Positions 60,553 through 64,000 of a DNA stretch of 64,000 nt are shown here, piece by piece. Source of the stretch: Candidatus Atabeyarchaeum deiterrae (GTDB lineage Archaea > Asgardarchaeota > Atabeyarchaeia > Atabeyarchaeales > Atabeyarchaeaceae); assembly GCA_037310415.1 (NCBI GenBank), contig CP147780.1:96001-160000 (forward strand), given 5' to 3'. The notes under the pieces are model-generated. The model was not told where the DNA came from and did not search any database. It saw nothing but the letters and a program-made list of their open reading frames with translations. A program made the position numbers and the translations under genes. How positions within the stretch are numbered: the first letter of the stretch is position 1; each line of letters begins with the position of its first letter.

Positions 60553-61533
60553 TCATCTCAGCAATTCCCGCAGGTATAACTTGTGTTTGCCGAGTTTGCC
60601 TCCATAGTTTCCAGCTGAGATTTGAATCACTCCATTCATGTCGAGAACTTTTTCAATGCCAGTCTTCATTGCCATCTTCACTGCATCCAGAGACACTCCA
60701 TCAATGACGATCTCAGGGATAGAATTCACCTCAGGTGGAACTTTGGATCGGTCTTTTAGTCTATCTCTCAAAGTTGGGCAGTACAGGTAGTTTGTGGGTG
60801 GACCTATCGGTGGATAGTCCTCGGTGGCTGACCCAGACGGGCAAGTGTAGAATGGCGTAACAACGCCTTCAACCTGTTTCAAGGCGTCGATCACTCTCCT
60901 CCCAGCTTTTCGTCCAGTTTCGATGCTGTCACAGAGCAACCATAGATTCCCGCCTGAAACACCGATACGACATTGAATGCGTCTGTCGATCTTAAAGTCG
61001 TACCCCATCATCAAAGGAACGTTAACTATATCCCTGTCGTCTTCCGCGGAGAACCATTCATAACCTCCACCGCACTTGCCGACTCGCTCTTCAGTGTCGA
61101 TCACCATGGTTTTCTCCGTTGTCTTGCCGTTTGGATAATCAAACCCGAATACCCTAGTTGTGCTTATAGAGAGAACGTCCTGCCTTATCCTGATTGACAA
61201 CTCTCTGTAGAACTGCTCTATTTGCTTCGCGATTCCATCTTTCTCGTCATACCTACCCCAGAGCTGGACTATAACTCCTTCACGTCCATCTGGAGTCTGT
61301 TTCTTTGCCAACCATTTCTCAATACCACCCTCAACCCTCCCGACAACTACAGATGGGGTTGCCGTACATCTATATGCCGCGAGTCTCAACTCATCATGCT
61401 CAATCTCGGGGCTAGTTCTATCGCTGGGTCTTATGCCCCTATCTCCTGTGATCAGTAGTCTTGTGTAAAGACCTGCAAAAGCTTCAGCATATGTGTCCTG
61501 AACCTTCTCGTAACCTCTCACCTTGTTGGACAT
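60553..61533 (-). CDS. ftr: Divergent formylmethanofuran--H4MPT formyltransferase (Ftr) homologue
   Basis: DTYAEAF, TPDGREG, GVSGGN, YCPTL, EIVIDG, ISAGNYGGKLG. Confidence 0.85.
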   Translation of the reverse strand: MSNKVRGYEKVQDTYAEAFAGLYTRLLITGDRGIRPSDRTSPEIEHDELRLAAYRCTATPSVVVGRVEGGIEKWLAKKQTPDGREGVIVQLWGRYDEKDGIAKQIEQFYRELSIRIRQDVLSISTTRVFGFDYPNGKTTEKTMVIDTEERVGKCGGGYEWFSAEDDRDIVNVPLMMGYDFKIDRRIQCRIGVSGGNLWLLCDSIETGRKAGRRVIDALKQVEGVVTPFYTCPSGSATEDYPPIGPPTNYLYCPTLRDRLKDRSKVPPEVNSIPEIVIDGVSLDAVKMAMKTGIEKVLDMNGVIQISAGNYGGKLGKHKLYLRELLR

Positions 61534-61630
61534 TGAAACAGGTCCTCTCCTTTTCGGTTTGTCAGTCCGTCGTGCAAGCAAGCACTGACCAGTTTGGAGT
61601 TGGCAAGAGCACGGAAGTCAACTGACAGGT

Positions 61631-63028
61631 TCATTCTGACTTCGGTATCGTCTTCCACCTGGATTGAGTTCTCCTGATCATCTCTGCAGTGTTTCTCCCT
61701 ATGTCACTCCTGTGGCTTAGCGGACCTTTGACGAGTCCGGTGGCTTCCTCTGCTATTCTCTCAGCTTCTTCAAGAGAATCTGACACCCCTAACAATGCAA
61801 TAGCTCTTGATTTAGTCGTAAAGATTCTCCCTTCAATCGTGTTGACGCTCGCCCAATAGTATCTAGCACCGACATTTTTGAGTCGCGCTTCGTCAACCTC
61901 GACTTGTTCCTTATCCCTTGGATTTTCCGGGTATCCCTCTGGCACTAGGTATTTGCAGACAGTTGCCTCGCGGCTGAACTTCACTTTCTTGGCGCTAAGT
62001 GTTTCATCGAATATGCTCCAGTATATTTCCACGGGATCATCATTGTCTAACAAAGGGAGTACGTTGATCGCCTCAGAGTCACCTAGTCGAACATTTGCTT
62101 CTGTCATTATCGTCGATAATTTGCCACTTACTGGGCTTATACCTTTCATCATCTGCGCATAAAGGAACCCATGATATCGTTCTCCAGTATCCTTGACCAG
62201 AGCTGAAGTGATATTGCGAACCATTTGAGCAGTATCTTCATAGTCTTTTCTAGTGATGAATGGCATCAAGTGGTCACTTTGACTGTAGCTTCCCATGCCT
62301 CCAGTATTTGGTCCTTTGTCATCTTCAAAGGCGCGCTTGTAGTCTTGAACGCAAGGGGTGAGGATGACACTCTTGCCATCGGTGAATGTCTGAATAGTTA
62401 CTTCAAGTGGATGGAGCATTTTCTCTTCGACTACGACGGACTGGATCCCTCCGGGTTTCTCCTTGAGGATTGATTCGATGTATGCATTCGTTTCCCGAGA
62501 ATCTTTTAGATGTTCGCCTGTAAGCTTCACACCTTTTCCACCTGTAAGCCCTCCTGGCTTTATCGCAAGGGGGATACCCTTCCTCATCATATCATCCACG
62601 TATTTTGAAGCGTCCGACAGATTTGAGAATGAATTGAATTCTGGATAGTAATGTATATTGTATTTCTTCATTAGGTTTCTGCAAAAGCCCTTGTCCCCTT
62701 CTATCATCGCACACGCTTTGACTGGTCCAACGCAGGCGATCTTCTTGTCTCTCAGCGCATCTGCGACGCCTGAAACCAGCGGGTCTTCAGGCCCCACGAC
62801 TGTTAAGTCGATCCGATTCTCTGTGGCGAACTCAGCAACCAGCCTGGGATTACTTGTAACTCCCTTCGCATCAACCTTGTAGTTCGCCTTGTCGCGGCAT
62901 AGTTTCACAATACTTGGGTTCAATCTATCTGACAGTACGTACAACATAGATGAAGGGCTCTTGCTGACACTTTCTGCAATTGCAGCCTCTCTTCCTCCTG
63001 ATCCTAACAACAGAACCTTTGTTGTCAC
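61631..63028 (-). CDS. purD: Phosphoribosylamine--glycine ligase
   Basis: LGSGGRE, VVGPEDPL, GGKGV, QDYKRAFEDDKGPNTGGMG, NVRLGD. Confidence 0.97.
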   Translation of the reverse strand: MTTKVLLLGSGGREAAIAESVSKSPSSMLYVLSDRLNPSIVKLCRDKANYKVDAKGVTSNPRLVAEFATENRIDLTVVGPEDPLVSGVADALRDKKIACVGPVKACAMIEGDKGFCRNLMKKYNIHYYPEFNSFSNLSDASKYVDDMMRKGIPLAIKPGGLTGGKGVKLTGEHLKDSRETNAYIESILKEKPGGIQSVVVEEKMLHPLEVTIQTFTDGKSVILTPCVQDYKRAFEDDKGPNTGGMGSYSQSDHLMPFITRKDYEDTAQMVRNITSALVKDTGERYHGFLYAQMMKGISPVSGKLSTIMTEANVRLGDSEAINVLPLLDNDDPVEIYWSIFDETLSAKKVKFSREATVCKYLVPEGYPENPRDKEQVEVDEARLKNVGARYYWASVNTIEGRIFTTKSRAIALLGVSDSLEEAERIAEEATGLVKGPLSHRSDIGRNTAEMIRRTQSRWKTIPKSE

Positions 63029-63130
63029 ACTCCCTCTCCCTCAAGTTGCCCGTCTTGGTACGAGCGATTAGTTTGTCATTTCTTATTACTCAATGATTAC
63101 ATGACTTCTGGTTCTGGCTGCTGATTGTAT

Positions 63131-64000
63131 CTACTGCGTTCTGCCTCCGAGTGTTGCCTCGAGCAACTCTAGCTGCGGAGGGGCATTCAATGGATATTCA
63201 CCAGTTAGACAGGCCATGCATATCTGGTTGTGCGGCATGCCCATGCTCCTAACGAGTCCGTCTGTATTCATGTATCCCAAGGTGTCTGCTCCAACCTCTC
63301 TCCTGATCTCATCGACTGTTCTAGTGGAAGCGATTAGCTCTCGTCTTGTTGGAAAGTCAATTCCCATGTAGCATGATGCGATGATTGGGGGACAACTAAT
63401 TCTCAGGTGTACTCGTCGCGCTCCGCCGACGGTCTTTAGCAAGTTGACTATGAACTTGGAGGTCGTCGATCTCACTATGCTATCGTCTATTACCACAATT
63501 TCTTTTCCTTCGGTCACAGATCGGATCGGGTTAAGCTTCAGCCTCACCAGAAGCTCACGATCCTCGGCCTTTGGTGTAATGAAGATGCGTCCAACATATC
63601 TGTTCTTCATTAATCCTTCTGCCAATGGTATTCCCGACTCTTCAGAGAAACCAGCTGCAGCTGCTCTGCCTGAGTCCGGAACTGGAATGACGTAATCAGC
63701 CTTAACTGGGTGAAGCTTCCAAAGATACCGACCCAGTCTCTTCCTGACTTCCCAGACGGATTTGCCGTCGATGAATGAATCCGGACGGCTGAAGTATACA
63801 AACTCGAACATACACAGAGCTTTCCGCTGAACATTCACTGCACGTTCTCTCTCGAACCCAGTCTCATCCACTTTTATAATTTCCCCAGGGTGAACGGCGC
63901 TTATCACCTTTCCGCCCACAGCTTCGACAGCAGGCGTTTCTGAGGCAATTACGTGAGCGTACTTGTTTATCGATCCTATGCATAGTGGTTTAAATCCTCG
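63131..64000 (-). CDS. purF: Amidophosphoribosyltransferase (partial, 5' end outside window)
   Basis: GFKPL, ASE, CMFEFVYFSRPDS, VPDSG, DDSIVRSTT, CYMGID, CMACLTGEYP. Confidence 0.97.
   Translation of the reverse strand, partial: RGFKPLCIGSINKYAHVIASETPAVEAVGGKVISAVHPGEIIKVDETGFERERAVNVQRKALCMFEFVYFSRPDSFIDGKSVWEVRKRLGRYLWKLHPVKADYVIPVPDSGRAAAAGFSEESGIPLAEGLMKNRYVGRIFITPKAEDRELLVRLKLNPIRSVTEGKEIVVIDDSIVRSTTSKFIVNLLKTVGGARRVHLRISCPPIIASCYMGIDFPTRRELIASTRTVDEIRREVGADTLGYMNTDGLVRSMGMPHNQICMACLTGEYPLNAPPQLELLEATLGGRTQ

Follow-up and report, generated by a model that had tools for sequence, protein, structure and literature searches.

Formylation of glycinamide ribonucleotide (GAR) to formyl-GAR (FGAR), the third step of de novo purine biosynthesis, is the only step of the pathway that lacks an assigned enzyme in several well-studied archaea, a gap in print since 2011. 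In that year, Brown et al. reported that the Archaeoglobi, the Methanobacteriales, and Methanopyrus kandleri have neither purN nor purT, and that Methanothermobacter thermautotrophicus is a purine prototroph despite the absence of both genes (PMC3261824). Chadwick et al. (2022) described an 'Ftr2' clade of the formyltransferase Ftr in anaerobic methanotrophic archaea (ANME-1 and ANME-2a/2b), Archaeoglobales, M. kandleri, and Methanothermobacter, and noted elsewhere in the same paper, unconnected to Ftr2, that ANME-1 lack PurN and PurT (PMC9012536). Kaster et al. (2011) regarded EhaS and EhaT as hydrogenase subunits (PMC3087415). Here, we analyzed a 64-kb stretch of the Candidatus Atabeyarchaeum deiterrae genome (the window; G000:C1:96001-160000 of the source genome, a single 2.76-Mb contig, 97% complete), in which a divergent ftr paralog, ftr2, follows purD in the purine operon at ~156.6 kb in genome coordinates. 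The clade that holds the window protein corresponds to what Chadwick et al. called 'Ftr2' (PMC9012536) and Kaster et al. called 'EhaS' (PMC3087415), and our literature search found no paper tying Ftr2, FtrII, or EhaS to the missing GAR formyltransferase. In a comparison with ~400 other archaeal genomes, Ftr2 stands out as the best candidate for the missing step-3 enzyme.

We propose, with moderate confidence, that Ftr2 carries out purine step 3 (GAR to FGAR) as a third class of GAR formyltransferase, one that has the Ftr fold, is unrelated to PurN and PurT, and would be fed by formyl-methanofuran (formyl-MFR) or N5-formyl-tetrahydromethanopterin (N5-formyl-H4MPT). We infer the acceptor (GAR), the formyl donor, and the reaction from operon position, from the alternation of Ftr2 with other formyltransferases in one gene slot, and from a complementary distribution across genomes. 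Four co-oriented genes fill the final 4.8 kb of the window, listed here in the order of transcription:

63131..64000, minus strand: purF, amidophosphoribosyltransferase (purine step 1), C-terminal 289 a.a. (TIGR01134, 279 bits, profile positions 177-432)
61631..63028, minus strand: purD, phosphoribosylamine-glycine ligase (purine step 2), 465 a.a., with GARS_N, GARS_A, and GARS_C domains (TIGR00877, 355 bits against a cut-off of 288)
61534..61630, minus strand: purD-ftr2 spacer, 97 bp, with a Shine-Dalgarno-like GGAGAGG 10 nt ahead of the ATG
60553..61533, minus strand: ftr2, divergent Ftr paralog, 326 a.a. from the ATG, candidate GAR formyltransferase (PF01913, 95 bits; PF02741, 151 bits)
59212..60483, minus strand: M20 deacylase of the ArgE/DapE family, 423 a.a. 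from the ATG at 60483 (PF01546 and PF07687; TIGR01910, 269 bits)

The purF gene runs past the window edge (complete open reading frame (ORF) at genome positions 159131-160642), and the operon order at the genome scale is purQ-purL-purF-purD-ftr2-M20. The likely start of ftr2 is the ATG at 61533, the mechanical ORF start being an in-frame TTG further upstream at 61581; measured from the purD stop (61631) to this ATG, the interval of about 100 bp given in the earlier note, which had drawn attention to an Ftr homologue behind co-oriented purF and purD, comes to 97 bp. Read by eye, the spacer contains neither an A/T-rich box nor an oligo-T run, and purD and ftr2 are therefore likely transcribed together. 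The M20 gene, with GGAGG ahead of its ATG at 60483 (mechanical ORF start TTG at 60489), is separated from ftr2 by 69 bp without oligo-T, and thus probably closes the operon.

No recognized enzyme for step 3 was found elsewhere in the source genome. A Pfam profile search returned no PF00551 (PurN-type) match anywhere in the genome, the best PurT profile score was 42 bits and lay within CarB, and custom hidden Markov models (HMMs) built from archaeal PurN-like and FolD sequences gave no genome match at E<=1. The genome does encode purQ, purL, purF, purD, purM, and purP, the last (the formate-dependent formyltransferase of step 9, acting on 5-aminoimidazole-4-carboxamide ribonucleotide (AICAR)) adjoining purM. 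We detected neither PurO nor the AICARFT domain of PurH in the genome (the MGS-type PurH2 domain was not searched for), so that the inosine monophosphate (IMP) cyclohydrolase step also has no assigned enzyme. The earlier note had proposed checking the genome for a lack of purN and purT and for a separate canonical ftr, and both checks came out in favor of its reading. The genome holds three Ftr paralogs, the canonical FtrA, the window's Ftr2, and FtrC, with FtrA adjoining mtd (390 bits), near a carbon monoxide dehydrogenase (CODH)-type gene and ~10 kb from fwdA (830 bits) and mch (421 bits). These genes lie at 821.7 kb (mch), 823.8 kb (fwdA), and 833-835 kb (mtd and canonical ftr), ~680 kb from Ftr2, which agrees with the earlier remark that no fwd, mch, or mtd genes are nearby. 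The third paralog, FtrC (304 a.a.; L003:1048-1962 on the plus strand, G000:C1 ~228.7-229.6 kb), lies between a glutamine synthetase gene (glnA) and a SIS-domain gene; in the Ftr tree, it sits with the canonical enzymes, within a small and divergent subclade.

To follow the distribution of Ftr2 in the Bathyarchaeia, we sampled 151 genomes at >=85% completeness, 132 of them with PurD; PF00551 was called at Pfam's own cut-off and the counts were conditioned on PurD. Among these 132 genomes, 55 carry Ftr2 only, 61 carry PF00551 only, 10 carry a PurT-like gene only (which is limited to these 10 within the sample), one carries both Ftr2 and PF00551, and five carry none of the three, i.e., exactly one candidate is present in 126/132. 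The Fisher odds ratio for Ftr2 against PF00551 was 0.0045, not corrected for phylogeny. Only 3/19 PurD-negative Bathyarchaeia have Ftr2. In the same sample, PurD itself is bimodal, those of Ftr2-type genomes being longer, divergent, and scoring 220-280 bits, below the TIGR00877 cut-off (e.g., G154:C1:581687-583033), and those of PurN- and PurT-type genomes being mostly canonical (>=300 bits).

The three candidates also alternate physically, in that Ftr2, PF00551, and PurT-like genes are all found in the slot after purD. A comparison of coordinates placed at least 27 PF00551 genes directly beside purD, and several PurT-like genes likewise. Among the PF00551-type loci inspected, we saw the orders purF-purD-FT-FT-FolD-purQ (and further genes) and purQ-purL-purF-purD-PurN-FolD, where FT denotes a formyltransferase. 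In genome G202, the order is purF-purD-FT(PF00551)-HADlike-pfkB-FolD, which matches an Ftr2-type cluster except that another formyltransferase takes the place of Ftr2 and FolD is an extra gene; the order in genome G197 is the same, but there the PF00551 match sits in the gap between purD and the HAD-like gene without an ORF call, and the gene after pfkB was unscanned. Upon alignment, the swap partners retain the PurN NxHP motif in 6/6 cases and the PurN Asp in 5/6. In the loci checked, FolD accompanies the folate-type enzyme and was not seen in Ftr2-type clusters, a pattern that fits two alternative donor systems.

In the Asgard archaea (121 genomes at >=85% completeness, of which 85 are PurD-positive and 36 PurD-negative), Ftr2 occurs in 25 genomes, all 25 with PurD, and in 0/36 of the PurD-negative ones, among which families f12 and f14 retain canonical Ftr. 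Within the PurD-positive set, 14 genomes have Ftr2 without PurN or PurT, 53 have PurN or PurT without Ftr2, 11 (all in family f9) have both, and seven have neither; Ftr2 is thus present in 14/21 of the genomes that lack PurN and PurT. The anticorrelation with purN and purT that the earlier note had proposed to test therefore holds as near mutual exclusion in PurD-positive Bathyarchaeia, and only partially in the Asgard archaea. Among 50 Ftr2 carriers from other phyla, PF00551 was present in 1/50 and PurT in 0/50. For the Halobacteriota and Methanobacteriota, our account draws on the literature and on 26 Ftr2 carriers, none of them Bathyarchaeia, that span several phyla.

We then clustered the neighbors of 80 Ftr2 loci from a species-representative genome collection, with cluster identities checked using Pfam, and the commonest were PfkB, PurD, a HAD-like protein, PurF, PurL, PurQ, and PurM. 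The usual order in the Bathyarchaeia (~50 loci) is purF-purD-HADlike-Ftr2-pfkB, then purQ-purL-purM, and the Asgard archaeon Borrarchaeum has the same cluster (purF-purD-HADlike-Ftr2-pfkB-purL/purQ-purM); in Borrarchaeum and genome G009, the eight cluster genes are on a single strand with ends overlapping or abutting. In a metagenome-assembled genome (MAG) deposited under the name Altiarchaeota, 10 bp separate Ftr2 from the purL-purQ pair downstream of it. Linkage of ftr to pur genes is therefore conserved across the Bathyarchaeia, two Asgard lineages, and this MAG, a conservation that the earlier note had suggested looking for. In genome G012, from the same family as the source genome, the order purQ-purL-purF-purD-Ftr2-M20 is repeated, with an M20 ortholog (728 bits) in the same position. 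In the euryarchaeal lineages Ftr2 is not linked to pur genes, and in the Methanobacteriaceae the HAD-like/Ftr2/PfkB trio lies within an eha-type operon.

The adjacency of this trio (the EhaR-S-T module) fails in the source genome, where, as in G012, Ftr2 stands alone after purD and is followed by M20. Its PfkB (294 bits) and divergent HAD-like (44 bits, E 1e-11) partners are found ~130 kb away, in a second purine cluster beside purM-purP:

L093:4074-10892 (G000:C1 ~20-27 kb), minus strand: pfkB ortholog, divergent HAD-like gene, gene for a FAD-dependent protein, purM, and purP

The two partners have stayed together and moved beside late-pathway genes. Based on coordinates, Ftr2 is also solitary in Odin, in a Loki-like genome, and in family f23, with the HAD-like gene adjoining or near purD. 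Each member of the trio is therefore linked to purine genes on its own, and the HAD-like protein, Ftr2, and PfkB need not form one machine. The HAD-like gene lies directly after purD in Odin and 0.7-1.6 kb from purD in the Loki-like and f23 genomes, and its product keeps HAD motifs II-IV (Ser, Lys, GDSxxD) with D-x-E-G-P in place of DxDxT at motif I (alignment A3, e.g., L013:8890-10002 and L093:8750-9919).

At the protein level, Ftr2 is recognizably an Ftr and distinct from the canonical enzyme. It reaches neither of the curated Ftr cut-offs (NF002554, 258.9 against 297; TIGR03119, 181.6 against 292.6), shares 30-33% identity with solved Ftr structures, and contains no PF00551 domain, being unrelated in sequence to PurN, to which its likeness is one of analogy only. 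The AlphaFold (AF2) model (pLDDT 88, pTM 0.87) is predicted to adopt the two-lobe Ftr fold, with Foldseek TM scores of 0.85-0.87 (0.83-0.87 when normalized to the target) to 1FTR, 1M5S, 1M5H, and FhcD (6S6Y_D). The catalytic glutamate is kept, with E274 of Ftr2 (in IPEIVIDG) aligning to E245 of the M. kandleri enzyme, a residue conserved in both Ftr clades. The residue-level observations of the earlier note were all reproduced, namely the departures TPSVVVGRVEGGIE (methanogen TSVIxCxxEAGI) and RIRQDVL (methanogen RIGQCVL), an insertion after LLITG (~13 residues), and the retained EIVIDG and AGNYGG. This insertion marks an 18-row 'long' subclade (99% support) and not the entire Ftr2 clade.

The Ftr phylogeny that the earlier note had recommended recovered Ftr2 as a separate clade; in our tree of 85 sequences, a branch with 100% SH-aLRT support splits Ftr2 from canonical Ftr, the latter including FtrA and FtrC of the source genome. 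The Ftr2 side comprises the window protein, pur-linked Bathyarchaeia genes, Borrarchaeum, Odinarchaeota, Alkanophaga, ANME-1, and the eha-linked Methanobacteriaceae gene. Scores against an Ftr2-clade profile (A1) were bimodal in the Asgard sample, with Ftr2 at >=285 bits and canonical Ftr at <=247, and the window protein, the first member used in building this profile, scored 529 bits. The alignment showed 25 positions common to the two clades and 11 conserved only in Ftr2 (V63, G65, Q90, W92, E111, D146, G152, W198, C231, G244, and P245).

Mechanistically, Ftr2 would, like canonical Ftr, move a formyl group from one amine to another with the help of a glutamate, with one substrate pocket (that for MFR or that for H4MPT) remodeled for GAR and the formyl group drawn from the Wood-Ljungdahl methanofuran/H4MPT pool. 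The donor could be N5-formyl-H4MPT, the primary amine of GAR replacing the aminomethyl group of methanofuran, or formyl-MFR, with GAR in place of H4MPT. In either case, a near-equilibrium transfer could be pulled forward by the ATP-driven formylglycinamidine ribonucleotide (FGAM) synthetase (PurL/PurQ) of the same operon. Given that FwdA, Mch, Mtd, FtrA, and the methanofuran biosynthesis enzyme MfnB (262 bits) are encoded, both carriers should be on hand in the organism; no folate-type formyl donor is evident in its genome. From published free energies, namely a standard free energy of -22.9 kJ/mol for formyl-methylofuran hydrolysis and a cost of just 4.4 kJ/mol for formyl transfer between H4MPT and the furan carrier (PMC6926001), both would be adequate formyl donors. 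Because GAR carries a primary amine similar to methanofuran's aminomethyl group, the pairing of N5-formyl-H4MPT with GAR would, we infer, be the most conservative change of specificity. In Methanosphaera stadtmanae, purine C8 comes from C2 of acetate even with formate present (PMC3261824), which fits a pterin-bound formyl donor over free formate.

MfnB was considered as a means of discriminating between the two donors and proved uninformative. It was found in 58/75 Ftr2 genomes and not found in the other 17, including G147-G151, G155, G156, G160, G161, G166, and G168, and all five of the MfnB-less Bathyarchaeia tested (G155, G156, G160, G161, and G166) still carry FwdA, Mch, and canonical Ftr (Ftr1) alongside Ftr2. 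The methanofuran/H4MPT pathway thus accompanies Ftr2 wherever tested, and in the MfnB-less genomes the furan moiety of methanofuran may be made by another or a divergent route.

Several observations weigh against a role in GAR formylation. None of the three candidates is present in 7/21 of the PurD-positive Asgard genomes without PurN or PurT, nor in 5/132 of the Bathyarchaeia, and many PF00551 matches are low-scoring (60-90 bits) and are assumed to be GAR-specific. The anticorrelation, in counts that are not phylogeny-corrected, could in part track a lineage-wide choice of cofactor (H4MPT or folate). In the Loki-like family f9, 11/14 Ftr2 carriers also have PurN, and Ftr2 is not beside pur genes in the three genomes inspected (L112, L113, and L114). 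The function of Ftr2 may therefore vary across the clade, and the f9 subclade, whose members also score lower on the profile (335-356 bits), may have a different or redundant role. Finally, according to Maden (2000), as cited in PMC3261824, N5-formyl-H4MPT is classically held to be a poor formyl donor for biosynthesis.

Another explanation is that Ftr2 is an anabolic isoenzyme of canonical Ftr. Ftr2 would then retain the canonical reaction (formyl-MFR + H4MPT <-> MFR + N5-formyl-H4MPT) and channel C1 units to purines, the true GAR formyltransferase being another protein. The shared fold, the catalytic glutamate, and the 25 common positions are in keeping with this, as is the constant co-occurrence of Ftr2 with Fwd, Mch, and Ftr1 where tested. 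We nonetheless consider it unlikely, as it leaves 126 counted genomes with Ftr2 and without PurN and PurT lacking a step-3 enzyme. It also offers no account of why the slot after purD should be taken elsewhere by PF00551 proteins with PurN catalytic residues or by PurT-like proteins, nor of why Ftr2 should be so scarce among PurD-negative genomes (0/36 Asgard, 3/19 Bathyarchaeia) when PurD-negative families keep Ftr1. The conserved substitutions specific to Ftr2 likewise suggest altered specificity.

An indirect supplier is an equally doubtful proposition. Here, Ftr2 would pass formyl groups to a carrier, or release formate together with a hydrolase (perhaps M20), for ATP-dependent formylation by PurP and an unrecognized ligase. 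The apparent co-transcription of Ftr2 and M20 in the source genome and G012 would suit such a scheme, as would the formate dependence of PurP, the step-9 enzyme of this genome, and the Fhc complex offers a precedent in which an Ftr homologue (FhcD) is paired with a metallohydrolase (FhcA; PMC6926001). FhcA, however, is an amidohydrolase-superfamily enzyme and not an M20 protein, the source genome encodes no PurT-like ligase, and the slot replacement seen in other genomes is by a direct formyltransferase. Linkage to M20 is moreover confined to one family, whereas linkage of Ftr2 to pur genes is widespread.

We also give little credence to Ftr2 formylating AICAR (step 9), or another amine of the purine pathway, in place of GAR. 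The lack of PurO and of the PurH AICARFT domain leaves some room for this in the source genome, as does the position of the PfkB and divergent HAD-like genes beside purM-purP, but the genome encodes PurP for AICAR formylation, Ftr2 itself adjoins purD (step 2) or purL (step 4) rather than late-pathway genes, and the PurN-like and PurT-like proteins with which it is mutually exclusive act at step 3. Least probable is that Ftr2 serves, as EhaS, the energy-converting hydrogenase Eha in the manner of an accessory subunit, as assumed in Methanothermobacter, with no purine role, since, for all the presence of the trio inside the eha-type operon of the Methanobacteriaceae and its reported co-transcription with ehaA-R (PMC3087415), the gene lies among pur genes in ~50 Bathyarchaeia and two Asgard lineages, no hydrogenase genes adjoin it in the source genome, G012, or G009, and, Eha being anaplerotic, GAR formylation as a biosynthetic outlet for formyl-MFR would sit well with co-transcription.

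Overall, every computational check that we ran supports the earlier placement of Ftr2 at step 3, except for the accompanying idea that the M20 deacylase might release formate from a formylated carrier. That idea found no support, as the linkage of M20 to Ftr2 recurs only in G012, the sole other genome of the family examined, and the protein resembles a generic ArgE/DapE-type deacylase; as a general formate-releasing partner, M20 was rejected, given that it adjoins Ftr2 in no other lineage inspected. A second M20 paralog, 30% identical to the one after ftr2, lies ~4 kb past purQ (L094:8054-9337, minus strand), so that the pur operon is flanked by M20 genes on both sides. Elsewhere in the window, 55221-55718 and 56438-57591 (both minus strand) encode a Ras-family small GTPase, of a kind typical of Asgard archaea, together with two adjoining ChrB_C-domain proteins that lie upstream of an MFS transporter.

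If GAR formylation by Ftr2 is correct, it would close the step-3 gap, add a third way of carrying out a metabolic step that is universal, and give H4MPT or methanofuran a first direct role as a biosynthetic formyl donor, a role thought reserved for folates or free formate. Purine synthesis would then be tied to the Wood-Ljungdahl C1 pool in the Bathyarchaeia, several Asgard lineages, the Methanobacteriales, ANME-1, the Archaeoglobi, and M. kandleri. It would likewise provide a purpose for EhaS, now treated as a hydrogenase subunit without a function, explain its place in the anaplerotic Eha operon, and correct those metabolic reconstructions of Asgard archaea and Bathyarchaeia that routinely count Ftr2 as the Wood-Ljungdahl Ftr. 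The source locus is informative in this regard, as the trio has been naturally taken apart and Ftr2 alone remains with purD.

Among known systems, Ftr2 can be compared with canonical Ftr (EC 2.3.1.101; 1FTR, 2FHJ, 1M5H, and 1M5S), with which it shares the two-lobe fold, the catalytic glutamate, and the ETPDGR, EIVI(N/D)G, and SAGNYGGKLG motifs. It differs in its clade motifs (RIRQDILS, CGGGYE, PLMMGYDF, CPSGS, and YPPIGPPTNY) and in lying in a purine operon rather than with fwd, mch, and mtd, in a genome that has its own canonical Ftr. The uncharacterized EhaS/'Ftr2'/FtrII proteins of Methanothermobacter, M. kandleri, Archaeoglobales, and ANME-1 are likewise related to it, the eha-linked Methanobacteriaceae and ANME-1 genes falling in the clade of the window protein, which is set apart by the absence of an eha context, by HAD-like and PfkB genes that are not adjacent, and by membership in the 'long' subclade with the insertion after LLITG. 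With PurN (the GAR transformylase that uses 10-formyl-tetrahydrofolate (10-formyl-THF); PF00551), Ftr2 would share the product FGAR, and it does share the position after purD, the two being mutually exclusive in the Bathyarchaeia; it has no sequence or fold kinship to PurN, its donor would be formyl-MFR or formyl-H4MPT rather than 10-formyl-THF, and FolD occurs in PurN-type but not in Ftr2-type clusters. PurT, a formate- and ATP-dependent ATP-grasp enzyme, is alike in the proposed step and in that PurT-like genes alternate with Ftr2 after purD, but its fold is unrelated and the reaction proposed for Ftr2 would require neither ATP nor free formate. Lastly, FhcD of the bacterial formyltransferase/hydrolase complex (6S6Y) is a further case of an Ftr-fold enzyme recruited to another job, in this instance paired with a hydrolase; in contrast to the role proposed for Ftr2, FhcD keeps the canonical substrates and works within a four-subunit complex.

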